From Escherichia coli (GTDB lineage Bacteria > Pseudomonadota > Gammaproteobacteria > Enterobacterales > Enterobacteriaceae): DNA of 64,000 nucleotides. The notes beneath the pieces were generated by a model. That model made no database searches. It had not been told where the DNA came from and was given only the letters and a program-made list of their open reading frames with translations. The stretch lies in NCBI RefSeq assembly GCF_036507355.1, contig NZ_AP027877.1; one strand, given 5' to 3'. Shown here in pieces: positions 17,489-42,152 of the stretch (the stretch's first letter is position 1; every line of letters starts with the position of its first letter). The position numbers and the translations under genes were made by a program.

Positions 17489-17492
17489 GCGT

Positions 17493-18312: not shown

Positions 18313-18371
18313 AATGCACTCCTTATGTTAACGAAAGGATTGTACAGTAAAGCGCATTTGTTAACGAATCA

Positions 18372-19324: not shown

Positions 19325-21010
19325 ATGTACGATTTTAATCTGGTGTTGCTGCTGCTTCAGCAGATGTGCGTTTTTTTAGTCATTGCGTGGTTAATGAGTA
19401 AAACGCCATTATTCATACCGTTAATGCAGGTCACGGTTCGTCTGCCGCATAAATTTCTCTGCTACATCGTCTTTTCCATCTTCTGCATCATGGGCACCTG
19501 GTTTGGGTTGCACATTGACGATTCTATTGCCAATACCCGTGCGATAGGCGCGGTAATGGGCGGCTTACTCGGCGGTCCGGTCGTCGGTGGGCTGGTTGGC
19601 CTAACCGGCGGGTTACATCGATATTCGATGGGGGGCATGACCGCGCTAAGTTGCATGATCTCGACCATCGTTGAAGGATTGCTCGGCGGCCTGGTACACA
19701 GCATCCTGATCCGTCGCGGGCGCACTGATAAAGTCTTTAACCCCATTACCGCCGGTGCCGTCACGTTCGTCGCTGAAATGGTGCAAATGTTGATCATCCT
19801 GGCGATCGCCCGACCTTATGAAGATGCGGTGCGTCTGGTGAGTAATATTGCTGCGCCAATGATGGTCACCAATACCGTCGGCGCGGCGCTGTTTATGCGT
19901 ATATTGCTCGATAAACGCGCGATGTTTGAAAAATACACTTCAGCTTTTTCTGCCACTGCGCTGAAAGTGGCGGCCTCGACGGAAGGCATTTTGCGCCAGG
20001 GGTTTAACGAAGTGAACAGCATGAAAGTGGCACAGGTGCTGTATCAGGAGCTGGATATTGGTGCAGTCGCGATTACCGATCGAGAGAAATTGCTGGCCTT
20101 TACCGGAATTGGTGACGACCACCATTTACCCGGCAAACCGATTTCTTCGACTTACACCTTAAAAGCGATTGAAACCGGTGAAGTGGTCTACGCTGATGGC
20201 AACGAAGTACCTTATCGTTGCTCTTTGCATCCGCAATGCAAATTGGGGTCGACGCTGGTAATTCCGTTGCGTGGTGAAAATCAGCGGGTGATGGGCACCA
20301 TCAAATTGTATGAAGCCAAAAACCGTTTATTCAGTTCAATCAACCGCACGTTGGGTGAGGGGATTGCGCAATTGCTTTCGGCGCAGATCCTTGCCGGGCA
20401 ATATGAGCGGCAAAAAGCGATGCTCACCCAGTCAGAGATCAAACTGCTTCACGCCCAGGTGAATCCCCATTTTTTGTTTAATGCGCTTAACACCATTAAA
20501 GCGGTGATCCGCCGCGACAGCGAACAGGCCAGCCAGCTGGTGCAGTATCTTTCCACTTTTTTCCGCAAAAACTTAAAGCGGCCTTCGGAGTTTGTTACTC
20601 TCGCCGACGAAATTGAACATGTGAACGCTTATCTGCAAATTGAAAAGGCGCGCTTCCAGTCGCGGTTGCAGGTCAACATTGCTATTCCGCAAGAATTATC
20701 CCAGCAGCAATTGCCCGCGTTTACCCTGCAACCGATAGTGGAAAACGCCATTAAACATGGGACATCACAACTGCTGGATACAGGGCGAGTGGCAATCAGC
20801 GCCCGACGTGAGGGGCAACATTTAATGCTGGAGATCGAAGACAATGCCGGTTTGTATCAACCGGTAACCAATGCCAGTGGGCTGGGGATGAATCTGGTGG
20901 ATAAGCGTTTACGTGAACGGTTTGGCGATGACTATGGGATAAGCGTCGCCTGTGAGCCTGATAGTTACACCCGAATAACGTTACGACTACCATGGAGGGA
21001 CGAGGCATGA
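19325..21010 (+). CDS. btsS: LytS-family sensor histidine kinase (pyruvate-responsive two-component system)
   Basis: N-terminus [17 protein letters not shown], 5TM-LYT membrane region, histidine kinase [10 protein letters not shown] motif, 561 aa. Confidence 0.85.
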
Positions 21011-22869: not shown

Positions 22870-24870
22870 TCATCCTTGTTGCTGAAGCATGGGGAATAAT
22901 TGTTCGCAAAGCAAAACACCGTTATTCATTGCTTCTACCCGTGCCCCGCTTTCTGTATTACGAAATTGTCCCAACACATGTGCCAGCCGATAAAAACCCA
23001 CCGCGGTGAGGTCATTCGCCAGCAATTCTGCCTGACTAATAGCGCTCTGTTCCTGATAGCGCCAGCCGTTATGGAGCAGCTGAATAAGTAACGCCTGGCA
23101 GCGTATCAGCAACTGATGAGCAGTAGACTGCACAGGCAAAACGCTGGCAGAAGGTAGCGGTGCCACAGGCGTAGTTTCTGCGTCCAGCGCCCAGGCACGA
23201 GTCTTTGTCATCATTACCTGTGGTTCCAGTGTCAATTGCCCATCAACAAAACTGACAAAGCCAGAAACCAGACACACGGGGTCGTCTGTTTGTTGCAAAA
23301 GCGCCGCCATGCGTTCAACGGCATAAGGCGCGCTGGCTGAGGCTGGCAGTGATAACGTCAGCAGATTATCTTCACCTTCGCCGCTGATTACCTGCGCATC
23401 CAGCGTCTGGCGGCTGCTATCCCAACCGAGCGAAATACACTCAGCGACCGGCAGAATAAATAAGTTATCGACCTGATTAAGAGGCCGTATGCAGGCGGGG
23501 GGACGCTGGCGTAAATATTCCCGCAAAGCCACAATGCCCGGCTGGCGTAACGGCGCGCTCAACATTCGCCAGGCATCAGGCGACAGCGGCACAACGCTGC
23601 TTAAGCGGTTGCGGGTAGCTAACAGCAGCTCGCCATCGGCACTGCGTTTTGCTGCTTGTGAAACAATTTGCCCACCCGCCAGTGCGCCAGCCTGAAAACT
23701 AAACAGCCGACGCGTAGCTGCCGGTGAGTTTTCCTGTTCACTTCGCGGCCAACTGCGCGAAAGGTGCAAAATACTGCCGGTGTCGGGATCGGTAAACCAG
23801 ATGCGTAAACCATAATGCTCAATATCCTGCCAGCAACGCATACCTAAAGACACCAGCCGCAGATGATCAAGCTTTGCTTCTCCGGCAATGCCAGAGCCAA
23901 CGACCGTGCGCCACGGCACAGGAGGAACTTCACCAACACTGTCGCGCCGGGCCATCTCTTGTGCGCAATTTAATCGACTGTTTAATGCCGCAAGCTGACG
24001 TAAGCATTCTCCGGCATGATAGTGGCTGGCGCGAGTGTGGAAGGCATCAACGCTTGCCCGTAGCTGTCGTAGTGATTCACTCACCCATCGCCAGTTGCAG
24101 CGTTCCGCTGCTTGCTGCGCGCGGCTGAAAGCGGCCTCGTAGTGAATAAGCGGCTGGCTGATGCCGCCAAACCATAATGCCTGGCTTAATTGCTGAACAT
24201 ATTGACGACACGTTTGGCCTTCTTCGCTGGCAAACGGGTCGTCAGATGATGTGACGTGTTCGCTGCGCATCTGCCAGATTAAATGAGTAAATTCCGCTTG
24301 CTGAGTTTTGGCCTCGACGAAGGCCTGCACAGCCAGTACGACATGTTCGCAAAGTGTGCCTTCAATACAATCACAACGGGCGAAACGAATGCTGCTACGG
24401 GAATAAAAACGCACATCGCTCATCGGTAAGCGGGCAGAGGGAATTTCGCCCGGCGTACAGAACAACTCAATGGTGATGCCTTTAGCGACCAGCGCCTGCG
24501 CGCGTTTGCGGGTGGCATCGGGCAGGGTAGCCAGTTCTTCCAGCCAGATTGCCGGATCCCACTCTTCTTCTTTTTCTGTGGGCTGGACGGTGGCACAAAG
24601 TCGTTGATAACTTAACACCAGCATCACGCGATGACGGCACATGCCGCTGGCCCCGCAGCTGCACTGAGCCTCTTTCAGTGCCTGGCCGTTCGCCAGCTGG
24701 GTACGGACACCGTCACTGAAGGTGGCGATTAAAGCGCCGTTCTCATGGCTGATCTCCGGGACGTTGCCATTTTCCAGTTCCTTAAGACTGCGCTTAACAA
24801 AACCGGCATTGCTTAACGCTGTCAGGGCCTGCGGTGTCAGTTCTAATAATTCCGGACGTAGTGAATTCAT
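22870..24870 (-). CDS. yehQ: SWIM zinc-finger protein, last gene of the yehLMPQ operon
   Basis: Two CxC..CxH SWIM-like motifs (CSCGASGMCRHRVM and CDCIEGTLCEHVV); start overlaps the yehP stop. Confidence 0.75.
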   Translation of the reverse strand: MNSLRPELLELTPQALTALSNAGFVKRSLKELENGNVPEISHENGALIATFSDGVRTQLANGQALKEAQCSCGASGMCRHRVMLVLSYQRLCATVQPTEKEEEWDPAIWLEELATLPDATRKRAQALVAKGITIELFCTPGEIPSARLPMSDVRFYSRSSIRFARCDCIEGTLCEHVVLAVQAFVEAKTQQAEFTHLIWQMRSEHVTSSDDPFASEEGQTCRQYVQQLSQALWFGGISQPLIHYEAAFSRAQQAAERCNWRWVSESLRQLRASVDAFHTRASHYHAGECLRQLAALNSRLNCAQEMARRDSVGEVPPVPWRTVVGSGIAGEAKLDHLRLVSLGMRCWQDIEHYGLRIWFTDPDTGSILHLSRSWPRSEQENSPAATRRLFSFQAGALAGGQIVSQAAKRSADGELLLATRNRLSSVVPLSPDAWRMLSAPLRQPGIVALREYLRQRPPACIRPLNQVDNLFILPVAECISLGWDSSRQTLDAQVISGEGEDNLLTLSLPASASAPYAVERMAALLQQTDDPVCLVSGFVSFVDGQLTLEPQVMMTKTRAWALDAETTPVAPLPSASVLPVQSTAHQLLIRCQALLIQLLHNGWRYQEQSAISQAELLANDLTAVGFYRLAHVLGQFRNTESGARVEAMNNGVLLCEQLFPMLQQQG

Positions 24871-26003
24871 GACTGAAGATTCTCCGCAAGCCATGATGCC
24901 AGCTCGCCCGGTGTCATGGCGGCTATTTGTGCGCCGACATTTACCAGCGCCTGGGCCGTATCGTGGTCATAGCAAGGTGTTGCGGTGCTATCGAGCGCCG
25001 CCAGTCCCAGCACTTTGATGCCGCTCTGGACACACTTTTTCACCTGATGCGTCAGTAATGATGATGAACCCCCTTCGTAAAAATCGCTCACGAGGATAAT
25101 GACGCTTTTCGCTGGTTGTTCAATAAGTTGCCGACCATACTCCACGGCACTGGCGATATTGGTTCCGCCGCCTAATTGCACTTTCATTAATAACTCTACC
25201 GAATCGGCAACGTCTGCCGTGAGATCAACCACACTGGTGTCAAAAGCGACCAGATGGGTACGAATGCCGGGTAACTGCCATAAACAGGCCGCCATCACCG
25301 CAGAGTGGATCACCGAATCGACCATCGAGCCGCTTTGATCAACCAGTAAGACCAGTTGCCATTGTTCGCTTTGGCGTTTAATGCGGCTGTTAAAGCGGGG
25401 GGATTCGATATACAACTTGCCGTGTTGTGGGTGCCAGTGTTGCAGGTTGGCGCGCAGAGTACTTTTGAAATCAAAGTTTCGCGCCAGTGGAATAAATGAG
25501 CGGCGACGGCGATCGCGGACACCAGAAAAAGCCTGACGAACTTCCTTTGCCAGTCGAGCCATAATTTCTTCAACAACCTGGCGCACTATCCGGCGGGCGG
25601 CAGCCAGTACTTCGGGATTCATCAGATGTTTGGTGTGCAAAACGGCGCGTAGCAGGCTTTCAGACGGTTGCATACGTTCCAGCACGTCGAGATTCGTCAC
25701 CACATCTTCAATGCCATAGCGCAGTACGGCATCGCTTTCCAGCCGCTCAATCACCTGTTGCGGAAACAGCGTGTGAATACTGTTGATCCACTCAGGGGTG
25801 GTGAGATTTGAGCCACCTAATCCACCAGAGCGTTCACCACGCTGGAGCCGTTCAGGATCGCGCCCATACAGCCACTCCAGCGCGTGGTCTATCTGCCGGG
25901 CGTTGTCATCCAGCCCACAAAGCGTCGTTTCTGCCGCTTCGCCAAGAATTAATCGCCAGCGTTGTAGCTCACGGGTGGTCAGAAGATCGTTCAGTTCAGA
26001 CAT
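24867..26003 (-). CDS. yehP: von Willebrand factor A (VWA) domain protein
   Basis: N-terminus MSELNDLLTTRELQRWRLILG; MIDAS motif DQSGSM within a VWA fold; 378 aa; start overlaps the yehM stop. Confidence 0.8.
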   Translation of the reverse strand: MSELNDLLTTRELQRWRLILGEAAETTLCGLDDNARQIDHALEWLYGRDPERLQRGERSGGLGGSNLTTPEWINSIHTLFPQQVIERLESDAVLRYGIEDVVTNLDVLERMQPSESLLRAVLHTKHLMNPEVLAAARRIVRQVVEEIMARLAKEVRQAFSGVRDRRRRSFIPLARNFDFKSTLRANLQHWHPQHGKLYIESPRFNSRIKRQSEQWQLVLLVDQSGSMVDSVIHSAVMAACLWQLPGIRTHLVAFDTSVVDLTADVADSVELLMKVQLGGGTNIASAVEYGRQLIEQPAKSVIILVSDFYEGGSSSLLTHQVKKCVQSGIKVLGLAALDSTATPCYDHDTAQALVNVGAQIAAMTPGELASWLAENLQS

Positions 26004-28275: not shown

Positions 28276-28285
28276 GCATCTTTCC

Positions 28286-29374
28286 TCACGGCAGGCGGTG
28301 ACGGGCTTGATAATAAGCCTGCCAGTGAGCTTCTTTATGTGTGGCGACACGCTGTTCGAAGTAACGGCGCAGACGAGCGCGATCTTCTTCGTTATCTTTG
28401 ACGATGGTTCCGGCAATACAGTCCACCAGGTCGGCAGGCTCCCCCGCACGATTCGCTAAAAACCAGGCGCGGACGCCCACAGCGTGAGCCACATTCACGG
28501 CTTCAGCGGTGGACATAATTGCCGTCAGTGTATCCATTGACGTTTTCTTTTCGCCGTTGGCACGCAGATCGCGGAAGGTGCGGACCAGTAACTCCAGTAC
28601 CGCGTCAGGCACTTTATGCGGAATACCGCTATGGGCCAGCAAACGCGCCGAAGCACTGGCGACAAGCTCCAGCTCCTGGGCGAAATCCATAATCGGAAAG
28701 ACAGTTTCAAAATCGAAGCGACGCTTTAGCGCAGCACTCATTTCATTGACGCCGCGATCGCGGGTATTGTCAGTGGCAATAATATTAAAGCCTTCTCGCG
28801 CATAGAGCTGACTGGCTTCACCAGTGAGTTCCGGCACCGTCATCACCCTGTCAGAAAGCATACCTAACAGACAGTCTTGCACTTCCAGCGGTGTACGCGT
28901 TATCTCTTCAAAACGGACGATTTTGCCGTCGCGCATTCCCTGGTAAAGCGGGGCTGGGACCAGCGCTTCCGTTGATGGACCATGATTGATAAGCAGGGCG
29001 TAGTTCCAGCCGTACTTGATTTGATCTTCGGTAGTAGATGCGCCGTCCTGGATGGTTAACCCGGCATCGCCGCTAATAGCGGTTGCCAGTAATTCAGACA
29101 GGAGAGATTTTGCGGTGCCAGATTCCCCCACCAACATCAAACCGCGTCCGGTGGCAAGAGTGACTAACATACGTTCGACAGCGGAGGGACTAATCACCAC
29201 TTTACGGCTAATATTTTGCGCGCTATCGCCAAGGATAAAAGCACGGGCCGCAGGCAAACTTAACTGCCAACCGGGCGGGCAAGGTGCGTTATCATTTTGT
29301 TTTAATTTTGCCAGTTCATCGGCGTATAACACAGCAGCAGGCGGACGCTGCAGATGATTATTCTGCGGTGACAT
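28286..29374 (-). CDS. yehL: MoxR-type AAA+ ATPase
   Basis: N-terminus MSPQNNHLQRPPAAVLY; Walker A LVGESGTAKS; Walker B-like acidic motif; 362 aa. Confidence 0.8.
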   Translation of the reverse strand: MSPQNNHLQRPPAAVLYADELAKLKQNDNAPCPPGWQLSLPAARAFILGDSAQNISRKVVISPSAVERMLVTLATGRGLMLVGESGTAKSLLSELLATAISGDAGLTIQDGASTTEDQIKYGWNYALLINHGPSTEALVPAPLYQGMRDGKIVRFEEITRTPLEVQDCLLGMLSDRVMTVPELTGEASQLYAREGFNIIATDNTRDRGVNEMSAALKRRFDFETVFPIMDFAQELELVASASARLLAHSGIPHKVPDAVLELLVRTFRDLRANGEKKTSMDTLTAIMSTAEAVNVAHAVGVRAWFLANRAGEPADLVDCIAGTIVKDNEEDRARLRRYFEQRVATHKEAHWQAYYQARHRLP

Positions 29375-29482: not shown

Positions 29483-29568
29483 AATAAAAAAACCTGCTGG
29501 TGAGGCAGGTTCTTTTATTTACTATTTTCAGGCCTAACACCACAGCCTGTGCAACATCGTGTTCCAAC
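29483..29568 (-). ncRNA. predicted antisense sRNA antitoxin (OrzO-like), roughly 85 nt
   Basis: Minus-strand -10 TATAAT (plus 29575-29580) placing the start near 29568; minus-strand intrinsic terminator (hairpin 29491-29511 plus U-run 29481-29490); its 5' end is complementary to the toxin leader at 29716-29734 (19 nt, 1 mismatch). Confidence 0.5.
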
Positions 29569-29597
29569 GAACGAATTATAACCACGGCTGGACCCCG

Positions 29598-29625
29598 TTG
29601 CAATTAAGATAATGAGATTTATAAT
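29598..29625 (+). promoter_or_regulatory. sigma70-like promoter of the toxin mRNA (TTGCAA-16 bp-TATAAT)
   Basis: -35 TTGCAA at 29598-29603 and perfect -10 TATAAT at 29620-29625; predicted start near 29632 gives a leader of about 175 nt before the ATG at 29807. Confidence 0.5.
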
Positions 29626-29806
29626 CCAGACCGTTGGGACGTTGCGCCGGATCGGACCAATTTTAAGTCCTGGCTACCGGACGGGTGGTGCTGCAGGTGG
29701 TGCCCTGATCCGGAGTGCAACATCGTGGTCCAACATACGTAAACCAGTATCGACAGGCAGTGTAAGGGTAAGGTGCTGGTGTTGCGCTCCTTAATAAGGA
29801 GAGCGG

Positions 29807-29896
29807 ATGGACACGCTGACACAAAAGTTAACCGTGCTCATTGCTGTACTGGAGCTATTAGTAGCTCTGTTACGGTTGATTGATTTGTTGAAGTAA
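29807..29896 (+). CDS. 29-aa hydrophobic type I toxin, ZorO-like
   Basis: Hand translation MDTLTQKLTVLIAVLELLVALLRLIDLLK; strong RBS AAGGAG 7 nt upstream; single predicted transmembrane helix; long structured leader; too short for the ORF track. Confidence 0.6.
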   Translation: MDTLTQKLTVLIAVLELLVALLRLIDLLK

Positions 29897-30005: not shown

Positions 30006-30323
30006 TTATTCTATTTCTTGGTTGAATATATTCTGTAGTTCACGATTAAAAATTGCTATTACAGTTTCAGGTGATTCACCTCGTAATTTCCGCTCATCAA
30101 TACACTCATCTCTTATATAAATCAACGCATCATTTATTAGCGGGTCAGCATCTTCTCGATCACGTTGATGAAATGTTGGATGTAGCCGGAATCGCTCCAG
30201 TCGATAGACGGAACCTGTAAATAATTCAGAGCATTTATGGATCTCAAGTCTGAAGGAAAACGGATCTTCAGGTACAGGGACCTCATAATCGTAAATAGCA
30301 ACTAGCTCTTTTTGCACGATCAT
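30006..30323 (-). CDS. yehK: uncharacterised protein YehK
   Basis: 105-aa ORF immediately upstream of yehI on the same strand. Confidence 0.7.
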   Translation of the reverse strand: MIVQKELVAIYDYEVPVPEDPFSFRLEIHKCSELFTGSVYRLERFRLHPTFHQRDREDADPLINDALIYIRDECIDERKLRGESPETVIAIFNRELQNIFNQEIE

Positions 30324-30383
30324 CGCTTTCCCCGCTGGTAAGTCGTGTAGATAACGGGCAGTCGCATCACTGCCCGCTGTGTT

Positions 30384-33300
30384 TTAATGGAAAATGACGT
30401 CAGGTGCGCTTAACGCCTCACTCAAATCAAACACATCAAGTTCGGCAAAAGTGACGGATTTATTGTCACGGTACACTCGAAGAGAACGGAAGCTCATTAA
30501 CGCTTTGCTATCAACATTGTAGTGGTTAAAACCGGGTGAAAACTTAAGGACCAGCCGGTACTCGCCCAGGTCATAGACAAATGCGTCCTCATAGCCTGAC
30601 TCCCAGCCTTTGTATCGCATTCCCATAAGTTGCCCAACGGTAGCGGATTTACCTTCCCAGCGAGTCAGGCTGTTACTGGTTGACTCGTCAGGTGTGAGCA
30701 GCACCGTGCGGCGCGACAACTGGCGAAAAGGCGGCATAATTTCGTAATCGGCAAAAAGCTGTGCAAATTCACTGCGCATTTCTGCTGTCATTTCTAACGG
30801 GTGGGCAATGCCAATCAGAGCGTCCGCAGGCAGGTCAATTGGCTCATCTTGCGCATTGCAGAACTCCCCCTCTGCGGCCACACGAAAGGCGTTGAGTAAA
30901 CAACGCGGTTCATTTGCCGGATAAACCCCCCATATTAATCGCTGGGTAACCAGACGGGTAAAGGGATGATTAACAAACAGAGAATGAAAATCTGCCAGCG
31001 ACCAGCGTCGGGTGGTACGTAGGGCAGCTTCAAGACGCGGGAGCAGGTTTTTGCTCACCTGAGTAGCATCTTTTTTTAGCCCTTTTAGTCGGGCCAGTGC
31101 CTCGGGCGCTTTCAGTTGATCGTCATCGGCGCGCAACCGGGGAACGCTTTTCTGGTGAACGTTTTGCTGATCAAAGATAACCGGGTTGAGGTTTTCATCG
31201 AAGCGAACGGTAAACTGCCGGGGACCAAAATCAAAACTCAACGCCTGCGGATCATCAAGGCCCAGGGTTGGGACTAATCTGTCCGCTAGCTCTTCCTGGC
31301 TTAGCCCGCGATTTTCTGCGACCACCTGAAGAAATTCCGCCGCGTTATCACGTAAGGGGCGGGATTTAGCCCGTTGCGATATATGATGCAGCTGTATCAG
31401 CGCCATATCATTATTCATCAGGGTAAGGATGTTCAGGCCGCTGACAGCACGGGCAGATTTGCCTTCTTGTGGCCAGGCGAGGATCTGTGTCGTCAGATCC
31501 CGTGCCGTGCTTTCGTCACCAAAGAGACTTAACGCCAGAAATGCCCAGTTGTCTTTTGCGGGGGCACCAGCTTGTTGCCACGCAGTGAAGAGATCCCAGG
31601 CAAAAGCTGCCAGCGTTTGTGGCTGGCAGAACGTTTTCAGTTGTTCCAGCCCGCTATAAAAACGTCCCCCCTGGGTAAAGCGCAGCATTTCGCCGATAAT
31701 TTCCAGAGCGTCATCGGTAACAGTTTGATTATTAGTGATAAGGCGCGGCCTGGACCACATTTGCGGATGCCAGAAATCAGGGGCTTTTGGAATGCGTGCC
31801 GGGTAAATCTCTATTGGACTCTGTTTAAGTAATTGTTCCAGGGCAGGCCATAGATCTGTACGCTGCCAACGATTGGCTACAGTTTGTAGCAATTCGCCAT
31901 GCCCATGTTCGTAAAGTAAACGCAGGGCAAGTAATGCATCTTCGCTTTTATCGCTAGATTTGGTGAAGACAAGAGGGATAAGTGCAGTAGCCGTATGTTC
32001 CGGCCATTGTAAAATCCACTGGCGAGCCAGATTACGCTGGCCCGCAAAACGGTGCCAGACGCGGGCAACGGGCAGGGCCAGTTCTGTTGCGCCGAAATTT
32101 AAAATTAACGGAAATGTTTCTTTTGGACGATGTGAAAAAGCCAACAGCAGACCTGGTAGCGCATCCAATCCGAGGATACTGAGAAAATAGTCCTCACCCG
32201 CGAACAGATGTTTTTTCTCATTGATACGCAGCCAGAAGGTCAAAGCCATCTCACGCGGCAACTGTGCCAATAAATACAGGTTCCAGACACTCTTTTCCGG
32301 ACGATAACGTGAGTAGTTGTCATTTTCCCATATGTTAATTAACGCTTCTATGTGACCGCTGCGGAGCGCCTGTTCTGCTAATTGTGCTTCCGGGGAGTTC
32401 CAGCCATTCAGGATCTCTTCAACCCGCCCCTGGTAGTAATGCCACTGAACAATGAGTGAATTGCGTGCAGCATCCAGTTTTCCAGGGAGTATATAATTCA
32501 AAAACAGCCATACATCATCCCCAAAACCCAGTTCCTGTAATACAACTCGCCCACTTTTTTGTTCCATGCGTTGCGCAAGAGATTCCGTGCTGAAATAACG
32601 GGCAGACTCAGTGGCGGCAAGCCTCTCTCGTTCGCCTGGTTGCCAGTAAACTTGCGGAGTTAATTCGAGCCGTGCCAAATCAAGACGTGGAGCTGTCATT
32701 TTTTTCTTACTACGCCACGGTGGTGAAACGAGGATTTCAGGCAGATTGCTGTTATCGGTGCCATCAATAACCGGTTTTGGCAGTGCCGATAAATAACTCT
32801 TCAGCACTGCCCTGGCTTGAGTACTTAACCACGGTATCACTTCTGCTGCCAGTTGTGGCTGCGATGCCATCAGCGTTTGTAACAGCGTACGCCAGTATTC
32901 ATCTCGAGCTTTTTGCTGTGCAGGCAGCTTTTTGTCTTCGATGATTGGATAACCAGGGCGTGCAGGTGGTTCTGTTAACGCCAGCAGTTCTGCCAGTGCG
33001 GCGAGCGTCGCATGGGGGAAGTTTTTATGGTATTTAGCTACACGTTGCAGGCTGGGTTTGTTTTTATCAGCAACTAACAGCAAGGTGCGGATGACTTGCG
33101 GATGGTTAATTTGTACCAGCAGACTGCCGCAATCTTCTTTATGAGCATACATTGCCAGGCGCGGAACGGCTGCCAGTCCTTGTTCGCGCAAAAGGGAGGC
33201 GCAGGCCGCGTAGCCGAAGCGGTTTTCTTGTGACATGTAGCTGGCTTCGCGATCGCTAAATACGTCCAGGCCCCAGTATCGTTCGAGTTTTTTTACCGCC

Positions 33301-34016
33301 GTATTATCAGTAGCAACGACCTTTAACCACTCCTTTGAATGGAGACTTGACCGGGAGCTTTCAAGACTGGCGAGTTCATTGGCTATTTCAGGTTTTTCCG
33401 GGAGGATCAGCGCAATAAAAGGACGGCGAATTTTGGGTATTCCTGGCAGTGCGGCAATGAGTTTATCGGCACAACGCTGCCAGCAACTTTCCTCTGCCAG
33501 CGACAGATGCTTACGCAAACGGAGATCGAAATCGTTATAGGTCGCGGAGCCATAACCGTAGCCATAGTCCTCGTCCTGATACTGCAAAGTGACGACCAGT
33601 GAGTCACTCTCATAACGCCGCGCAATGCACTGACGCGATATCACTACATCCGTCGCATATTCCAGCCCCTCTTGTTGCACGATTTCATCAAGTAACTGCT
33701 GGCTGTCATTTTGCGCGATACAGATCAGAGCCGCCATGGTAAGGGCTGGGATTGACGGTTTATGCTCGCCAGTCAAATTGATTGCCTGCTGGATGGCGGA
33801 CTGCCACTCCAGTGAGCATTTATCATAATTCCAGGTGATATTTTCCTTCTGGCCTGCTTGTTGTAGTAATTCATCTCCCAATGTCTGGATGAGACTTCCA
33901 GTGATAACAGGCACCGGTTCGCCCGGCCATTTGCGATGACTGAGTGGTGTTTTGCCTTTTTTATATTTCAGTTCCAGTTGGGCGTTATCCGCCAGCCACG
34001 GTAATTCCTTGTCCAT
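30384..34016 (-). CDS. yehI: giant DUF4132 protein
   Basis: Intact 1210-aa ORF; paralogous to the molR segments further along. Confidence 0.85.
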   Translation of the reverse strand: MDKELPWLADNAQLELKYKKGKTPLSHRKWPGEPVPVITGSLIQTLGDELLQQAGQKENITWNYDKCSLEWQSAIQQAINLTGEHKPSIPALTMAALICIAQNDSQQLLDEIVQQEGLEYATDVVISRQCIARRYESDSLVVTLQYQDEDYGYGYGSATYNDFDLRLRKHLSLAEESCWQRCADKLIAALPGIPKIRRPFIALILPEKPEIANELASLESSRSSLHSKEWLKVVATDNTAVKKLERYWGLDVFSDREASYMSQENRFGYAACASLLREQGLAAVPRLAMYAHKEDCGSLLVQINHPQVIRTLLLVADKNKPSLQRVAKYHKNFPHATLAALAELLALTEPPARPGYPIIEDKKLPAQQKARDEYWRTLLQTLMASQPQLAAEVIPWLSTQARAVLKSYLSALPKPVIDGTDNSNLPEILVSPPWRSKKKMTAPRLDLARLELTPQVYWQPGERERLAATESARYFSTESLAQRMEQKSGRVVLQELGFGDDVWLFLNYILPGKLDAARNSLIVQWHYYQGRVEEILNGWNSPEAQLAEQALRSGHIEALINIWENDNYSRYRPEKSVWNLYLLAQLPREMALTFWLRINEKKHLFAGEDYFLSILGLDALPGLLLAFSHRPKETFPLILNFGATELALPVARVWHRFAGQRNLARQWILQWPEHTATALIPLVFTKSSDKSEDALLALRLLYEHGHGELLQTVANRWQRTDLWPALEQLLKQSPIEIYPARIPKAPDFWHPQMWSRPRLITNNQTVTDDALEIIGEMLRFTQGGRFYSGLEQLKTFCQPQTLAAFAWDLFTAWQQAGAPAKDNWAFLALSLFGDESTARDLTTQILAWPQEGKSARAVSGLNILTLMNNDMALIQLHHISQRAKSRPLRDNAAEFLQVVAENRGLSQEELADRLVPTLGLDDPQALSFDFGPRQFTVRFDENLNPVIFDQQNVHQKSVPRLRADDDQLKAPEALARLKGLKKDATQVSKNLLPRLEAALRTTRRWSLADFHSLFVNHPFTRLVTQRLIWGVYPANEPRCLLNAFRVAAEGEFCNAQDEPIDLPADALIGIAHPLEMTAEMRSEFAQLFADYEIMPPFRQLSRRTVLLTPDESTSNSLTRWEGKSATVGQLMGMRYKGWESGYEDAFVYDLGEYRLVLKFSPGFNHYNVDSKALMSFRSLRVYRDNKSVTFAELDVFDLSEALSAPDVIFH

Positions 34017-34025
34017 GCTCTTTCC

Positions 34026-36226
34026 TTATTCAAACAGGGCTTCAATATCGTTAATTAGCTCGCTGGCGGTGATGGCATCGAGTACGGAGAACTGCGCTTC
34101 CTGTGTTGAATTACTCCCCCAGCCATAGCTTTCTGCGTTGCCTTCCCATAGCCACAGCTTGCTTAAGATTTGCTCGGCACTCAGTTCGGCTGGCGACATG
34201 CCTACCGCAAAACCTTCATCGATTTCCATGATTAACGACCAGCGGCCCAGAGGTTTGATCATCCAGCCGATCCAGCCTCCATCCTGCGGGGTGCCCTTTA
34301 TCCAGCCTTTATTCGCCAGCCCCATGACCCGACCGCTCGGGTATTTTCTGCCTGCCCAGCGGGTCAGTTCGCTGGCGTTGCGCTCGGCTTCTGTCAGGGC
34401 GTAACTGTTACGGTCAAGCTGACGGAACGGTGGTAGCAGTTCATAGTCGGCAAAAAGCTGACCAAAGGCGGCAGCATCCGTCGGTGATATTTCCAGAACG
34501 TGAGGAATGCCAACAGAGATATCGCCTTCCGGCAGGGTGAAAAGATCATCGTCAGCGGTGCTGTAGCTGTTATCTTCCGCCACGCGGAAGCACGTCAGTA
34601 GCTGGTTTTCGGTGCTATAAACGCCCCAAATCAGACGGCGGGTTAAGTGGCGTACCAGTGGATGTTCAACCAGGAAGAGCTGAAAGTTTTCTGGCGACCA
34701 GCGGCGACGCAGGCACATGGCGGATTCCAACCTTGCTACCTGCTGGGCGGCGACGGTACGCGCATCTTTTTTCAGCAGTTTGTAGCGGTTAACAGCATCG
34801 TTCGCCTGTGATTCATCATCGCTTTTGTTTGGTTTGGGCAGGTCTTTCAGACGGCTGCCAGAAACATCACGCACAAACGGTTTTAAGGTTTCATCAAAGC
34901 TGACGGTGAACTGGCGTGAGCCGAAATCCAGCAGCAACGAACCGTTATCATCCAGACCGAGATCCGGTGCTAACCGATCTTCAAGCTCTGCCACCGTGAG
35001 TTCGCGGCTCTCGGCAATGTCGGCAATTTTTTCTTTTGCCCGCTCCTGTAATGCTTTGAATTTCAGTTTCTGGGCGATGCCGTTAAGCTGCATCAGGGCG
35101 ATATCACTACCGATAGCAGCGAGAATATCCAACCCAACGGTGGCGCGTTTATGCTGGGATTCACCAGGCCAGGCGCGGATTAATGGCGTCAGTTTGCGGG
35201 CGGTGTCGTCGTTACCGAGAACGCCTAACGCAGCGAACGCCCAACTCTCTTTCGACGGCGCGCCAGCGGTCTGCCAGGCGGTAAACAGATCCCAGGCAAA
35301 TCCCGCCAGTGAGTCGGCGGTACAGGCATCTTTCACCTGCAATAATCCCGGATACAGAGCCTCTTCCTGAGGGAAGCGGAGCATTTCACCGAGGTGGAGG
35401 AGGGCGCTATCTGGCAGTACCTTGCTGCTATTTTTGAGTTTCGGGCGAGTCCATAATGGAGGTTGATAAAACAACGGTAAAGGGGGGATTTTCGCCGGGT
35501 ATTTACCCACAGGACTGTTGTCGTTATTTTTATTTTGAGTTTCCCAGGGCGGCGAGACTAGTACCATTGGTAGAATTTCTGAGTTTGCAAAATCTTCATT
35601 GCGACTATTCAGCAATTGCTGACATTGTTGCAATAAATTTGCCGCTTGCGACGATAATCCGATGACTAATTTTTCGACCAATAAAGAATTTGCATTAAGT
35701 AATGAAACCAGCAATGTATGTTTGCGTTTATCATCTTTTTTTACCAATGCTTCGGCTAATGCCACTATCGTTGCAGAAGGAAAATTTTCGGCACTTTTTA
35801 TTAGTCGTTCATAACAGCGTTTATTAGTATCGGCGGCTTCGATGAGTGCCGTAATGGCCAACGGATGATTAATACATTTCAGTACGTCACCGCAATTATC
35901 TTCTTCAGCATAGGGAGCCAGGCGAGCCAGTGCCGCTATACCTTGCTCCCGTAATACCGTAGCTGACCAACTGGCACCATAGGTGTTAAATACATCAATG
36001 TATTGATAGTTCTCCAGTATTTCGAGCGTGAATGGATCTGTCGCTACCAGTTTCAACATTTCAAGTTGTGGAACATCTACGACCTGGTGTAAACGATGTA
36101 CGATCTCATGGGCCACTTCGGGTATTTCTGGCATTAAAATGGCAATTAACGGTTGGCGATAGAGTGATATATCTGGTAACGCAACGAGTAATTTTGCAAT
36201 GCAATTTTGCCATACTTCTTCTTCTG
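34026..36226 (-). pseudogene. molR: molR-type DUF4132 paralogue, C-terminal segment; reading frame runs unbroken into the IS1 end
   Basis: 702-aa ORF plus 30 in-frame codons reaching the IS1 boundary; strong similarity to yehI residues from about 200 onward (e.g. LREQGIAALARLAPYAEEDNCG versus LREQGLAAVPRLAMYAHKEDCG). Confidence 0.65.
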
Positions 36227-36241
36227 GGTAATGACTCCAAC

Positions 36242-36745
36242 TTATTGATAGTGTTTTATGTTCAGATAATGCCCGATGACTTTGTCATGCAGCTCCACCG
36301 ATTTTGAGAACGACAGCGACTTCCGTCCCAGCCGTGCCAGGTGCTGCCTCAGATTCAGGTTATGCCGCTCAATTCGCTGCGTATATCGCTTGCTGATTAC
36401 GTGCAGCTTTCCCTTCAGGCGGGATTCATACAGCGGCCAGCCATCCGTCATCCATATCACCACGTCAAAGGGTGACAGCAGGCTCATAAGACGCCCCAGC
36501 GTCGCCATCGTGCGTTCACCGAATACGTGCGCAACAACCGTCTTCCGGAGCCTGTCATACGCGTAAAACAGCCAGCGCTGGCGCGATTTAGCCCCGACAT
36601 AGCCCCACTGTTCGTCCATTTCCGCGCAGACGATGACGTCACTGCCCGGCTGTATGCGCGAGGTTACCGACTGCGGCCTGAGTTTTTTAAGTGACGTAAA
36701 ATCGTGTTGAGGCCAACGCCCATAATGCGGGCTGTTGCCCGGCAT
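36242..36745 (-). CDS. insB: IS1 InsB (made as an InsAB' frameshift fusion)
   Basis: 167-aa ORF overlapping insA in the -1 frame. Confidence 0.85.
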
Positions 36746-36939
36746 CCAACGCCATTCATGGCCATATCAATGATTTTCTGGTGCGTACCGGGTTGAGAAG
36801 CGGTGTAAGTGAACTGCAGTTGCCATGTTTTACGGCAGTGAGAGCAGAGATAGCGCTGATGTCCGGCGGTGCTTTTGCCGTTACGCACCACCCCGTCAGT
36901 AGCTGAACAGGAGGGACAGCTGATAGAAACAGAAGCCAC
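36664..36939 (-). CDS. insA: IS1 InsA
   Basis: 91-aa [30 protein letters not shown]..., zinc-finger/HTH protein of IS1. Confidence 0.9.
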
Positions 36940-36994
36940 TGGAGCACCTCAAAAACACCATCATACACTAAATCAGTAAGTTGGCAGCATCACC

Positions 36995-37500
36995 AACTCT
37001 GTAATTCCTGGTGTGATATCCGTGACGGCAGGAATGGGAAGTACCGGTAAATCAAATACGGGTATGACATTCTTTTTCTTATTTATTACCCACGGTGGAG
37101 CGACAAGCAGCTCCGGCAACATATCCACAGTGGCATATTCACATTCTTCAGCTACTGGCAGCGGACGACATTCAGATAAGATGCCTGCCGCCTTAGCATT
37201 AACCCAGGGAATGACCTCGCATACTAACTCTGGCGTGGCGGTAATCAGTTTGACAAGCGCTTTACGCCACTCATTATTTTCATGTATTGCCAGCAAAGTA
37301 GCATAAGCGGCAATAGCCGCAGCGGGATGTTTTTGGCAGGCTTTGCTTAAGTATTCCAGGTGCTTTTTCTTGCCATTTACACCGAGGATCAGAATTTGAA
37401 TCGCATCCGGGTGATTCGTTTTCCATAGCCATTTGACAAGATTTTCAGTCTCGCTGATGCGTTCGAAGAGATAAGTGGGATTGTCAGAATGGTCTTCCGT
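36995..37500 (-). pseudogene. molR: molR middle segment between IS1 and IS600
   Basis: Open frame encoding ...NLVKWLWKTNHPDAIQILILGVNGKK...EVIPWVNAKAAG..., similar to yehI residues about 290-450; stop codon immediately upstream in frame. Confidence 0.55.
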
Positions 37501-37678
37501 AAACTAAAGAAGTATCCGGCTTACACCGCGCACCCCAGATACTGCTCTGAGTACAGTGGAAAAATACGATTTCCCACCGTTGTATCGTGATTTTCGTAAT
37601 TTTCGCGCTTATCTGGCAATGTTGTTGGCAAATAATGAGGTGTACTGGCAATAGCGGACACTACCATTTGTTCTTTTT

Positions 37679-38497
37679 TTAAGCAGCCATCTGATGATAT
37701 TTTTCCCTGAAGGCTGCCGGGGAGATATTCCCCAGACGAGAGTGACGACGCTGACGATTGTAGAAAATCTCAATGTATTCCCGTATTACTGAGATGGCTT
37801 CATCCCGGTTATTAAAACGATAGTGGCTCAGGCTCTCATTTTTCAGCGTTCCCCAGAAGCTTTCCATCGGAGCGTTGTCGTAACAGTTACCTTTACGCGA
37901 CATTGATGTTTTCAGACCAAACTGCTCCTGTATGACCCGGTAATCGTATGCGCAGTACTGTGAACCTCGATCAGAGTGGTGGATTAGCCCGGCAGGTGGG
38001 CGCTGGCTCCTGAGCGCCATAAACAGGGCTTTACCTGTCAGCTCTTTTGTCATGCGCTCTCCCATGGCGTAGCCGACAATTTCGCACGTATAAACATCTT
38101 TGATGCCAGCGAGGTACAACCATCCCTCCTGTGTGGCAACATACGTCAGGTCCGCCACCCAGACCTGATTTGGTGCTGTAGGAGCGAACGTCTGGTTCAG
38201 CAGATTTGGCGCAACTGGCAGATTGTGGTTCGAGTTCGTAGTCGCTCTGAACTTGCGTTTCTGCTTACAGCGTAGCCTTAGCTCCTTACGAAGACGTGCC
38301 AGTCGGTCACGACCAACGATGATGCCATTCTCTGCCAGCTCCGTCTGGAGCCGCCGGGTTCCATATGTTTCGCGAGTGCGGATATGTGCCACCTTAATCT
38401 CCAGTTTTAGCCGCTCATCACTTTGTTTTCTGTCTGAGGGTTCATGCTGTACCCAGTTGTAATAACCGCTCCTGGATACACCAAATACCTGACACAT
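37679..38497 (-). CDS. IS3-family transposase OrfB (DDE catalytic domain)
   Basis: 272-aa ORF with integrase-like DDE region; presumably expressed via -1 frameshift fusion with OrfA. Confidence 0.85.
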   Translation of the reverse strand: MCQVFGVSRSGYYNWVQHEPSDRKQSDERLKLEIKVAHIRTRETYGTRRLQTELAENGIIVGRDRLARLRKELRLRCKQKRKFRATTNSNHNLPVAPNLLNQTFAPTAPNQVWVADLTYVATQEGWLYLAGIKDVYTCEIVGYAMGERMTKELTGKALFMALRSQRPPAGLIHHSDRGSQYCAYDYRVIQEQFGLKTSMSRKGNCYDNAPMESFWGTLKNESLSHYRFNNRDEAISVIREYIEIFYNRQRRHSRLGNISPAAFREKYHQMAA

Positions 38498-38532
38498 CGC
38501 TTCAATGGGAAATTGTTGTCGCCATTGTTCGA

Positions 38533-38832
38533 TTAACGCGTATTTTTCAGCGACTCCTGTGCAAAATACGTTGCTTTTTTTAATATATCTCGCTCAAGGC
38601 GAGCTTCATTTAACGCCTTACGCAGTTGCAGAATTTCAGATTCCAGTTCAGCCACCGTGCGGGAACCAGGAGTACCGAGCCCTTTTCTGGCGGCGGTAAC
38701 CCATTGTCCTAAAGTGCCTTCAGGAAGAGATAATCGGGAAGCGCCTTCACTGATCGAAAGTTGATTTTCAAGAACCGTTCTGACAGCTTCGGCTTTGAAC
38801 TCTTTAGAGTAACGTTGGGTTTTTCTGCTCAT
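38533..38832 (-). CDS. IS3-family transposase OrfA
   Basis: 99-aa HTH protein. Confidence 0.85.
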   Translation of the reverse strand: MSRKTQRYSKEFKAEAVRTVLENQLSISEGASRLSLPEGTLGQWVTAARKGLGTPGSRTVAELESEILQLRKALNEARLERDILKKATYFAQESLKNTR

Positions 38833-38896
38833 TATTAGCTCCTTCTGATGCCATTCTATTTCAGGAAGGAGTGTCCGTTAAACTCAGGCTACCTCA

Positions 38897-39847
38897 ATCA
38901 TCGGTTATCACCAGTCTTAACCAGGTCATCGCCGGGACGTTTTGGTCTGCATAGCGTAGAGCTATAGCATGGGCGATATCCGGGCGTTCAGGGAGCAGTA
39001 ACGCCGCAAAAGGTTGCCGTGCGGGGGATAGCGTCGGAATGGCGGTGAGTACTTTATCTACACAGCGTTGCCACTCATCTTCTGAAGCGAGTGAAAGATG
39101 ATGACATAGACGTTGATGCCAACTAGGTAGCGATTCTGCTTTGTGATTAGGTGGAATGATGGTGGTTACTGCGCCTTTTACTGGTTTATATTTGAGTTGA
39201 AGGGCAAAAAGGACGATTTCAACGGCGCTTTCCAGACCACAGCGAATGACTAAGTCATCGACCAGTTCATCTGCAGAGTAAGAGTTCCAAAAACTCCAGA
39301 GCAATGCTGCATCAGATTGCGCACTCCCTGTCTGTTGATTATCCAGAATTCGCCTTTGTAACTCAGCAAAAGCCTGCTGCCAGTTTTCAGGATAAGAGCG
39401 GTAATTGTTGTCGGGATCATATGCCCTGGTGTTATTCGCGATGCGTTGCCATATTTGACCATCTTTGTGCAGATAATTGATCTCTCTGGGGCGAGAACGA
39501 TGAGGAAAAGCAAATCGATTAATATCGCCAGTTATCGGAATGACTGCGTCATCAACCAGCCATGGGCGTTGGATTTTACTCTCAGGGGAAGATTCAACTT
39601 CAGGAGTGGCTTTGGTGATGGGGGGGATATGCACGTTTGCTGAAGCATTTTCTACATAGCCTTTTTTCGTTTTCTCTGCGATCAGCTTAAGCTTCGCTTT
39701 TTCCGCTGCTGCAACATCAGCAAAATTTTTTACCTGGCTTTGCCCTTGGGTACCAACTTTCCCCCAGCTGATATGCAACTCGTTTCCCTGCTGCTCCACC
39801 GCCCAGAATTTATGTGATTTTTCGTCCTGATAGATATAACTCTTCAT
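38897..39847 (-). pseudogene. molR: molR N-terminal segment (WGR-like domain plus DUF4132 start), truncated by the IS3-family element
   Basis: N-terminus MKSYIYQDEKSHKFWAVEQQGNELHISWGKVGTQGQ (WGR-like); aligns to the yehI N-terminus after about residue 90; frame ends in a stop supplied by the IS end. Confidence 0.7.
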
Positions 39848-39947
39848 CCGCGTTCCCTGTATTTATATCCAGTTATAAGCGGATGCTAGCAGTTAATGAA
39901 AAAAATTAAGAGCGTTGAACAAACAAGAAAACAACTTTAGGAATTTA

Positions 39948-39987: not shown

Positions 39988-42021
39988 TTATTTCACCTGA
40001 TGACCCGGTTTAGCACCGGCATCCGGGCTTAGCAGGAAGATATCTTTCCCGCCAGGACCGGCAGCCATCACCATGCCCTCAGAGATACCGAAGCGCATTT
40101 TACGTGGTGCCAGGTTAGCCACCATAATGGTGTGACGACCAATCAGTGCCTGCGGATCCGGGTAGGCAGAACGAATGCCAGAGAAGACATTGCGTTTTTC
40201 ACCGCCGAGATCCAGCGTCAGGCGCAGCAGTTTGTCAGAACCTTCAACAAACTCTGCGTTTTCAATAAGCGCCACGCGCAGGTCAACTTTAGCGAAGTCG
40301 TCAAAGGTGATGGTTTCCTGAATCGGATCATCTGCCAGTGGGCCAGTAACTGGCGCGGCAGCTGCTTTCACTTCTTCTTTAGACGCTTCCACCAGTGCTT
40401 CAACCTGCTTCATATCGATGCGGTTATACAGCGCTTTGAACGGATTCACTTTGTGGCCCAGCAGAGGTTGCTGGATACCATCCCAGGTCAGTTCTGTATT
40501 GAGGAATGCTTCTGCGCGCTCGGTCAGTTTCGGCAGTACCGGCTTCAGGTAAGTCATCAGCACGCGGAACAGGTTGATGCCCATTGAGCAAATCGCCTGC
40601 AGGTCAGCATCGCGGTCTTCCTGTTTTGCCACCACCCACGGAGCCTGTTCATCGACATAGCGGTTAGCCAGATCAGCCAGCGCCATGATTTCGCGCACTG
40701 CTTTACCAAATTCGCGGCTTTCCCACGCTTCACCAATCACTTCAGCGGCATCAGTGAAGGTTTTGTACAACTGCGGGTCAGCCAGTTCGCTTGCCAGCAC
40801 ACCGTCAAAACGCTTGTTGATAAAGCCCGCATTACGAGAGGCCAGGTTAACCACTTTGTTAACGATATCAGCATTCACGCGCTGAACGAAATCTTCCAGG
40901 TTGAGATCGATATCATCAATGCGCGAAGAGAGTTTCGCAGTGTAGTAGTAACGCAGGCTGTCGGCGTCAAAATGATTCAGCCAGGTGCTGGCTTTAATAA
41001 AGGTACCGCGAGACTTAGACATCTTCGCGCCGTTCACCGTCACATAGCCATGAACAAACAGGTTGGTCGGCTTGCGGAAGTTGCTGCCTTCCAGCATTGC
41101 TGGCCAGAACAGACTGTGGAAGTAAACAATATCTTTACCGATGAAGTGGTACAGCTCGGCGGTGGAGTCTTTCTTCCAGTATTCATCGAAGCTTACGCTG
41201 TCGCCGCGCTTGTCGCACAGATTCTTGAAAGAACCCATATAGCCAATCGGCGCATCTAGCCAGACGTAGAAATATTTACCCGGCGCGTTCGGAATTTCAA
41301 AACCGAAGTACGGCGCGTCGCGGGAGATATCCCACTGTTGCAGGCCAGATTCAAACCACTCCTGCATTTTATTTGCCACCTGCTCCTGCAACGCACCGCT
41401 GCGGGTCCATGCCTGCAACATTTCGCTGAAAGAGGGCAGATCAAAGAAGAAGTGTTCAGAATCACGCATTACCGGCGTAGCGCCAGAAACCACCGATTTC
41501 GGCTCGATCAATTCAGTCGGGCTGTAGGTCGCGCCGCAGACTTCGCAGTTATCGCCGTATTGATCCGGGGATTTACATTTCGGGCAGGTGCCTTTTACAA
41601 AACGGTCCGGCAGGAACATGCCTTTTTCCGGATCGTACAGCTGAGAGATGGTGCGGTTTTTAATAAAACCGTTTTCTTTCAGGCGAGAGTAGATAAGTTC
41701 TGACAACTGGCGGTTCTCTTCGCTGTGCGTCGAGTGATAGTTGTCATAGCTGATGTTAAAGCCTGCGAAATCAGTCTGATGCTCCTGACTCATTTCGCCA
41801 ATCATCTGCTCCGGGGTGATACCCAGCTGCTGAGCTTTCAGCATGATCGGTGTACCGTGGGCATCGTCGGCGCAGATGAAGTTGACCTCGTGGCCGCGCA
41901 TTCGCTGGTAACGGACCCAGACATCAGCCTGGATGTGCTCCAGCATATGGCCGAGGTGGATTGAGCCGTTAGCGTACGGCAGTGCGCACGTCACCAGAAT
42001 TTTCTTCGCGACTTGAGTCAT
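39988..42021 (-). CDS. metG: methionyl-tRNA synthetase
   Basis: N-terminus [25 protein letters not shown] (HIGH motif), KMSKS present, 677 aa. Confidence 0.95.
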
Positions 42022-42152
42022 AGTAGGCATTACTTCTTAATAGTGAAAAGGGGTTAGATAGTACCAAATGGGAAAATGTTAAGTAAGTACTTCTCTATAT
42101 TCTTCAGGTAAACTATCAGCTGATGGTTTATCTATACAAAAAAGGAGTCGGG

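Follow-up and report, generated by a model that had tools for sequence, protein, structure and literature searches.

Three tandem DUF4132 paralogues at the Escherichia coli metG-yehL locus, two of them disrupted by insertion sequences, and their place in a conserved five-gene operon with a MoxR-VWA system

We analyzed a stretch of 64,000 nucleotides from Escherichia coli (assembly GCF_036507355.1, contig NZ_AP027877.1; hereafter the window), with emphasis on the array of very large DUF4132 genes at positions 30006-39847, namely yehI and several segments named after molR. The comparisons show that this region is the E. coli metG-yehL locus and that it originally held three tandem DUF4132 paralogues of the YehI/MolR clade. 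The segments are remnants of two separate WGR-DUF4132 paralogues, here called genes A and B, that are both dead in the window. Across bacteria, the comparisons show that genes of this clade stand in an operon of the order [WGR-DUF4132]n-YehL(MoxR)-YehM(DUF5682)-YehP(VWA)-YehQ(SWIM), in which n ranges from 1 to at least 8.

The domain composition of these proteins is already known, and “WGR and DUF4132 domain-containing protein” is an existing NCBI name. In the window, YehI matches Pfam DUF4132 (PF13569) at E 6.5e-47, and the 702-aa open reading frame (ORF) that remains of gene B matches it at E 3.7e-52. A first-pass annotation of the window had assigned both to this family. It had also described an N-terminal segment with a WGR module that yehI lacks; accordingly, the 317-aa ORF at the start of gene A matches Pfam WGR (PF05406) at E 1.7e-18 and holds the peptide SHKFWAVEQQGNELHISWGKVGTQGQ, whereas YehI gave no Pfam WGR match. 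Trimmed sequences were used for the Pfam searches of YehI and the gene A product. The gene A domain aligns to the WGR domain of PARP3 (WGKVGTQGQS versus WGRVGEVGQS), and the three-dimensional WGR fold of PARP1/2/3 is present in this group of proteins. Intact gene B carries an N-terminal WGR domain as well, and the intact allele at locus L002 contains both domains (DUF4132 E 2.5e-50, WGR E 3.5e-17). In NCBIfam searches there was a partial, WGR-level match to a Leptospira “fibronectin-binding” equivalog, which was rejected as a functional lead since its 61 bits fall far under the 1000-bit cutoff.

The paralogy of yehI and the molR-derived segments over long stretches, likewise proposed in that annotation, was confirmed by BLASTP, in which YehI matched the fragments at E values of 4e-120, 5e-31, 1e-20 and 6e-14. 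YehI shares 44.6% identity over 439 aa (E 4e-120) and 34.9% over 235 aa with the 702-aa ORF, and 36% over 94 aa (E 6e-14) with a 107-aa ORF from gene A. Its alignment to the 317-aa ORF (28.8% over 236 aa, E 1e-20) begins only at residue 95 of that ORF, past the WGR domain, and YehI is therefore a WGR-less paralogue.

The association of the array with a MoxR-VWA-SWIM operon holds well beyond the window. The family was scanned with HMMER using the C-terminus of YehI as the query (E<=1e-3, clusters at 50% identity), which recovered 5703 cluster representatives. At ~410 aa, the conserved unit is over twice as long as the Pfam DUF4132 domain, and an N-terminal WGR domain is present in 70 of 112 full-length representatives. 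Taking one genome per species, we then compared 73 loci drawn from the best 80 matches, which belong to Enterobacterales, Burkholderiales, Xanthomonadales, Mycobacterium, Myxococcota, Trichlorobacter and Holophagales. Local phmmer searches of the flanks found homologues of YehL (52/73), YehM (50/73), YehP (45/73) and YehQ (46/73) within 10 kb. These nearly always share the strand of the DUF4132 gene or genes and come straight behind them, in most cases with an overlap or abutting ends. The loci without such partners are mostly short contigs or long paralogue arrays, as in Massilia with up to 8 copies in 24 kb. The same five genes are present in independently annotated records from Streptomyces, Bacillus mycoides and Sinorhizobium, so that the operon is seen in several classes of Pseudomonadota and in Myxococcota, Acidobacteriota (Holophagales), Actinomycetota and Bacillota. 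Both the WGR and DUF4132 relationship and the linkage to yehLMPQ, on which the first-pass annotation depended, were thus recovered.

Most loci have a single WGR-DUF4132 gene, and arrays of 2 to at least 8 occur in Escherichia, Klebsiella, Duganella, Polaromonas, Ramlibacter and Massilia. The very long Massilia arrays (L032, L036, L037, L058, L059, L069, L074, L076) have 5-8 copies per 24 kb and in some cases lead straight into yehL; these genomes also have several solitary WGR-DUF4132 copies elsewhere. Gene order varies in places. In Burkholderia (L013, L014), yehL-M-P-Q is followed by the WGR-DUF4132 gene, and in Sinorhizobium (L081) the DUF4132 gene is placed between the DUF5682 and VWA genes. 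In other taxa the operon is flanked by ordinary metabolic or hypothetical genes. None of 50,697 phage records holds a copy; 33 of 72,556 plasmids do, mostly megaplasmids or mislabelled chromosomes. Solitary distant DUF4132 genes (~870-930 aa) were observed on an Acetobacter plasmid (L082), which is mobilisable and where the gene sits among toxin-antitoxin, ParB-like and helicase genes, and on a Fulvitalea plasmid (L083).

Structure prediction and region-by-region comparison show that the proteins of the clade have conserved ends around a hypervariable, HEAT-like helical solenoid. The AlphaFold2 model of the product of gene B, the compact paralogue, was built from an alignment of 60 sequences and reached a predicted local distance difference test score (pLDDT) of 91.3 and a predicted template modelling score (pTM) of 0.77. 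It comprises the WGR domain (residues 1-67), a disordered linker (71-97), a helical region (~138-484) and a C-terminal module (~550-1010) that is first helical and then alpha/beta. Among 110 homologues, mean pairwise identity falls from 45% in the WGR domain to 21% in the helical middle and rises again to 51-55% in the C-terminal module. This module (~460 aa) has no solved structural relative. For the other operon products, a sequence search of the Protein Data Bank (PDB) identified Midasin AAA domains as the nearest solved relatives of YehL (E 3e-10) and gave no matches for YehM, YehQ or YehP. YehP has a weak NCBIfam match to a putative cobaltochelatase subunit (TIGR02442, E 5.5e-4), and YehQ has weak Pfam SWIM matches (E 0.0013 and 0.21).

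In the window, the DUF4132 array genes are all on the minus strand, downstream of metG (39988-42030). The architecture of the ancestral array was determined with blastn against E. coli JNEC-KY204 (locus L001), in which A, B and yehI are intact. Gene A would have encoded a WGR domain, a helical region and the C-terminal module (~1265 aa), gene B the same in 1010 aa, and yehI the same without WGR in 1210 aa. The features of the locus are as follows.

39857..39872, minus strand: LexA (SOS) box, AACTGGATATAAATACAGGG with flanks in the minus-strand reading, ~10 bp upstream of the gene A start codon
38898..39847, minus strand: gene A remnant 1 (residues 1-317), within the 317-aa ORF 38894-39847; WGR at residues 8-69 (~39641-39826)
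~37637..38897, minus strand: insertion sequence IS600 (IS3 family) inside gene A, with orfA at 38533-38832 and orfB at 37679-38497; terminal sequences seen
37544..37636, plus strand: inverted 93-bp piece of gene A (~codons 318-346), abutting IS600
36995..37537, minus strand: gene A remnant 2 (~residues 347-527), with an in-frame stop at 37504-37506; 107-aa ORF 36973-37296
36227..36994, strand not assigned: insertion sequence IS1 (768 bp) with transposase ORFs, at the junction of the gene A and gene B remnants
34026..36226, minus strand: gene B remnant (~residues 278-1010 of 1010), with the open 702-aa ORF 34026-36134
30384..34016, minus strand: yehI, intact, WGR-less paralogue of 1210 aa; conserved C-terminal module at ~residues 731-1143
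30006..30323, minus strand: yehK, 105 aa, not DUF4132 (ORF list and annotation)
28286..29374, minus strand: yehL, intact, MoxR-type AAA+ ATPase of the YehL subfamily; 99.2% identity over 362 aa to YehL of L001
25996..28275, minus strand: yehM, intact, DUF5682 protein (Pfam E 2e-97); full-length 97.8% match
24867..26003, minus strand: yehP, intact, annotated as VWA domain-containing; full-length 98.7% match
22870..24870, minus strand: yehQ, intact, annotated as SWIM zinc finger family; full-length 96.4% match

The array is thus present where the first-pass annotation had placed it, though the range given also takes in yehK, which is not a DUF4132 gene, and the IS1 and IS600 copies, which went unmentioned. 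The segments had been treated as parts of one molR, a view that the intact alleles of JNEC-KY204 overturn. The 317-aa ORF is 90% identical to residues 1-317 of the intact 1265-aa gene A, and the 107-aa ORF is 86% identical to residues 430-528 of the same protein. The 702-aa ORF, in contrast, is 96.7% identical to residues 309-1010 of gene B. The region containing LVSPPW is present in both an A piece and a B piece, which therefore cannot belong to one gene. In K-12, two genes are present at the locus, the first of which is now annotated as yehF and the pseudogene yehH; the name molR is historical.

Gene A is damaged at several points. It is interrupted by an IS600 copy that is 99.2% identical to annotated E. 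coli IS600 copies. The adjoining 93-bp piece is inverted relative to the intact gene, as its local alignment is to the reverse complement of L001 ~20818-20905; it also has a small insertion of ~9 bp. The second remnant, which corresponds to L001 20280-20822 at 93% identity, contains a nonsense codon, where the translation reads ...ILL*FTE.... At the junction with gene B, the IS1 copy is 98.7-99.7% identical to annotated IS1 copies and is not bordered by a target-site duplication, its flanks CTTCTTCTG and AACTCTGTA being different. Gene A residues ~528-1265 and gene B residues 1-~277 are missing at this point. On the L001 map, the loss would correspond to a deletion of ~3 kb (17218-20279). In lacking a target-site duplication, the junction is consistent with an adjacent deletion mediated by IS1, as opposed to a simple insertion. 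Gene A was struck by the IS600 insertion, the 93-bp inversion and the nonsense codon, after which the IS1 event, with its ~3-kb deletion, took away the tail of A together with the head of B. A second IS1 copy, at 49568-50335, matches that at 36227-36994 with 100% identity and points the other way. Recombination between these copies could flip the intervening ~13 kb.

As a result of these events, only yehI and yehLMPQ remain intact at the locus, and both IS600 and IS1 now stand between the SOS-box promoter and yehI. The yehLMPQ genes, just downstream of the array (22870-29374), are full length, with 96-99% identity to those of JNEC-KY204. Window proteins are identical to the GenBank E. coli entries BED21802 (YehI is BED21802.1), BED21803 and BED21809 (locus tags VEE46_157xx). 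On the basis of these matches, a Shigella origin of the window, which the pairing of IS1 with IS600 had suggested, was rejected. The yehK product has no family matches, and a homologue was found at only one of the 73 loci, in Escherichia, so that the gene looks like a lineage-specific insertion into the operon. Between yehK and yehL lies a type I toxin-antitoxin locus (29486-29896). It consists of zorO (29807-29896, plus strand), encoding the 29-aa peptide MDTLTQKLTVLIAVLELLVALLRLIDLLK, and the antitoxin small RNA OrzO (29486-29561, minus strand; Rfam RF02083, 99.9 bits). The window has one copy of zorO/OrzO; JNEC-KY204 seems to have a tandem pair.

The regulatory sequence upstream of gene A connects the array to DNA damage. 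The box AACTGGATATAAATACAGGG is the sole AT-rich CTG-N10-CAG site in the window, and an equivalent box, AACTGGATAAAATTACAGGG, is found at the same place in K-12, JNEC-KY204 and S1-SRL-01-C. Previous work lists molR among the LexA-regulated genes with a known SOS box (PMC6590174), and its promoter is also activated by BglJ-RcsB (PMC3950696). The first-pass annotation was fair in calling the function of the family essentially unknown, but it missed that molR is an established LexA-regulon gene and that the box is present here. Damage regulation has a counterpart outside E. coli: in Deinococcus radiodurans, DRA0166 (DUF4132) and DR2173 (WGR) have DdrO sites and show an IrrE-dependent rise after mitomycin C (PMC8533742). 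The WGR domain of PARP2 is described as recognising DNA breaks (PMC6294510, PMC13061835). In K-12, yehL and yehM are silenced by H-NS (PMC3686432).

SOS control of the whole family was also considered and rejected. Boxes of the E. coli, Cheo, alpha-proteobacterial and Xanthomonas LexA types were scanned, and of the operons in other taxa only that of Klebsiella oxytoca was positive.

The array varies greatly within E. coli. Among 5426 complete genomes, the WGR-coding start of the first gene is present in 5419, the rest of the A allele of the window (at >=80% coverage) in 1639, and the B-specific part in 410. The gene adjoining metG shows 45% protein identity between two E. coli strains, and, over the C-terminal 495 residues, the L002 allele and gene B of L001 share 93% identity; together, these values imply shuffling among the paralogues. 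Alleles of yehI differ by 5-8% at the protein level. Their ratio of nonsynonymous to synonymous divergence (dN/dS) is 0.14-0.20 versus 0.02-0.04 for metG, which indicates that yehI is under purifying selection and functional, but less constrained. The gene is a recombination mosaic. Compared with K-12 (L003 8280-11912), synonymous divergence is 0.36 in residues 1-440 and 0.01 in residues 731-1143. Positive selection was not detected in yehI: pairwise dN/dS is 0.14-0.26 by region, the variable part included, and nowhere exceeds 1. Published work describes a resistance-transposon insertion in the region in sequence type 131 (ST131; PMC9334617) and deletion of yehM, yehL and zorO in Shigella sonnei lineages 2 and 3 (PMC12795559).

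We tentatively propose that the WGR-DUF4132 proteins are interchangeable, DNA-damage-linked adaptors or clients of an AAA+/VWA motor; the proposal, inferred mechanism included, falls somewhat short of probable. DNA damage would switch on the first gene, through LexA in E. coli and through DdrO/IrrE for the Deinococcus homologue. The WGR domain may then bind a nucleic-acid feature, such as a DNA break, while the variable solenoid would pick the protein or complex to be acted on. Docking onto the YehL/YehP motor would fall to the conserved C-terminal module, and YehM and YehQ may be scaffold or nucleic-acid-binding partners. ATP hydrolysis by YehL, relayed through the VWA domain of YehP, would remodel or extract the target, as in other MoxR-VWA pairs and Midasin, and one motor would be served by the tandem paralogues as alternative adaptors. 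Given a damage-induced first gene, the system most likely acts in the DNA-damage response. For MoxR-vWA pairs, the proposed action is to trap a peptide and let it go in a changed conformation (PMC7159879), and this activity and the relatedness of YehL to Midasin fit a remodelling or extraction role.

The system resembles several characterized ones in part. Like RavA-ViaA, CbbQ-CbbO, NorQ-NorD and CoxD-CoxE, it has a MoxR AAA+ gene (yehL) in an operon with a VWA gene (yehP), and the mechanism expected from such pairs is ATP-driven remodelling of a VWA-held protein (PMC3893208, PMC7159879). It differs from them in its three further partners, namely the DUF5682 protein YehM, the SWIM protein YehQ and the one-to-many WGR-DUF4132 proteins. 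YehL is the type of one of seven MoxR subfamilies (PMC3893208), for which the searchable literature holds no experimental characterization or client enzyme. Midasin/Rea1, which pulls assembly factors off pre-60S ribosomes, likewise combines an AAA ring with a MIDAS/VWA domain. It is, however, a single eukaryotic polypeptide of ~5000 aa, whereas here the parts are separate bacterial proteins. Unlike PARP1/2/3, the WGR proteins of the window have no ADP-ribosyltransferase domain, and their WGR is fused to a helical solenoid and DUF4132. The bacterial WGR protein Q64V53 of Bacteroides fragilis (PDB 2ra8) differs in its length of 362 aa and in having no DUF4132 module.

Several observations weigh against the adaptor proposal. 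Outside Escherichia, the SOS box turned up in Klebsiella oxytoca alone (1/59 scanned non-E. coli loci), and the Streptomyces, Bacillus, Sinorhizobium and Xanthomonadales operons gave no LexA motif suited to their taxon in the upstream sequence; damage regulation is therefore not family-wide. In E. coli, yehK and the type I toxin-antitoxin locus separate yehLMPQ from the DUF4132 genes. In addition, yehLMPQ appears to have its own, H-NS-silenced promoter (PMC3686432), so co-expression with the DUF4132 genes is not assured. YehI has no WGR domain, and the WGR-based sensing model is thus not directly applicable to it. Distant DUF4132 proteins (~25% identity) are solitary, without a MoxR/VWA operon, and the linkage therefore defines the YehI/MolR clade and not the whole Pfam family. 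The genes are often disrupted without obvious cost, as illustrated by the K-12 yehH pseudogene, the ST131 transposon, the S. sonnei deletion and the decay in the window. Finally, the putative docking role of the module and the putative specificity role of the solenoid are drawn from conservation patterns.

Another explanation, hinted at in the first-pass annotation, is that this is a conflict system against phages or mobile elements, in which the paralogues are diversified sensors of foreign nucleic acids or proteins and the MoxR-VWA pair a thresholding switch. It would account for the presence of 2 to at least 8 tandem paralogues whose middle regions are hypervariable, and for the deep allelic classes within one species described above. 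The mosaic recombination in yehI, the frequent loss or pseudogenisation of array genes, the H-NS silencing of yehLM (PMC3686432) and the toxin-antitoxin locus embedded in the region would also suit it, as would the distant Acetobacter plasmid gene among toxin-antitoxin genes and a faint PADLOC match to WGR_XIII (E 0.0045 over 44 residues). Conflict systems built around a MoxR-vWA pair are known (PMC7159879). The ternary systems described by Kaur et al. in 2020, with VMAP, iSTAND, FtsH or beta-propeller components, share the MoxR-vWA core, large variable components and paralogue diversification. However, direct support was not forthcoming. PADLOC-DB v2 searches of nine proteins gave nothing significant, with no families for YehI, A, B, YehK, YehL, YehM, YehP or YehQ; the faint WGR_XIII match was the only one. 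Pfam, NCBIfam and fold searches found no effector (nuclease, peptidase, TIR or similar) in the five proteins and, in place of a defining third component or effector-associated domain, only WGR, DUF4132, DUF5682, VWA, SWIM and helical repeats. The operon matches none of the four described MoxR-vWA conflict architectures, and the paper describing them includes no WGR, SWIM, DUF4132 or YehL (PMC7159879). The absence from phage records, the few plasmid copies, the fixed position between core genes in 5419/5426 E. coli genomes, the ordinary flanks in other taxa and the low dN/dS even in the variable part all argue in the same direction, and we regard a conflict system as unlikely.

It is less likely still that the operon encodes an assembly or cofactor-insertion chaperone of the CobN-S-T, BchH-I-D, NorQ-NorD, CbbQ-CbbO or CoxD-E type, with the DUF4132 protein as client or substrate-carrying subunit. 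The parts list is that of a class I chelatase: BchH-BchI-BchD and CobN-CobS-CobT likewise combine a large subunit of ~1200-1300 aa (~140 kDa) with a MoxR-related AAA+ protein and a VWA protein. The weak match of YehP to TIGR02442 and the historical molR phenotype, which concerned molybdate utilisation, point the same way, and characterized MoxR proteins mature specific complexes (PMC3893208). Against this, the DUF4132 profile and models are unlike CobN, BchH or any enzyme fold, with no detectable sequence or fold similarity to CobN/BchH. The operon also has two extra subunits and several large-subunit paralogues, and a cofactor pathway would not normally pair one motor with multiple divergent clients. 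No conserved client-enzyme or cofactor gene lies beside the operon in the 73 loci and three annotated operons, and SOS or DdrO regulation is unexpected for cofactor insertion. The historical reading as a transcriptional regulator of molybdate metabolism is highly improbable. The name molR reportedly comes from a 1990 genetic study by Lee et al., and databases still use names such as “MolR family transcriptional regulator”. However, the proteins have no helix-turn-helix, Mop or other regulator domain, only WGR, DUF4132 and a helical repeat. No molybdenum genes (mod/moa) are linked in any locus examined, the gene is a pseudogene in K-12, annotated yehF/yehH, and molybdate genes did not respond along with the Deinococcus homologue (PMC8533742).

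In relation to previous work, the membership of molR in the SOS regulon and the YehL subfamily of MoxR proteins are already known. Three elements were not found in the searchable literature and appear to be new: the five-gene operon with variable-copy WGR-DUF4132 genes, the link between an orphan SOS gene and an orphan MoxR system, and the conserved/variable/conserved protein architecture. This literature rarely mentions DUF4132 and contains no functional study of it; searches with yeh gene names returned mostly noise, and those for DUF5682 and the YehL subfamily returned only the RavA paper.

The practical message of the window is modest: two of the three paralogues are pseudogenes wrecked by insertion sequences, and the “molybdate regulator” label is unsupported. 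A bolder extension of the adaptor proposal, which we think improbable, is that the operon encodes an undescribed, widespread five-component machine, in which a repertoire of receptors steers one AAA+/VWA motor to targets on damaged or foreign DNA. If true, the WGR nucleic-acid sensor and a docking module of new fold would be constant from receptor to receptor, and the solenoid hypervariable. The machine would then be the bacterial equivalent of a Midasin-like extractor joined to a PARP-like damage sensor, and it might also double as an innate-immune style of surveillance, with arrays of up to eight or more receptors.

The wider significance lies in the joining of two orphans. The molR gene (yehF-yehH) is one of the few LexA-regulon genes of still-obscure function, and E. 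coli has only two MoxR ATPases, one of them YehL. Their shared five-gene operon turns the problems of an SOS gene and a MoxR subfamily into one testable problem, and raises the question of whether an AAA+/VWA motor may use WGR-bearing adaptors on DNA-bound targets after damage.

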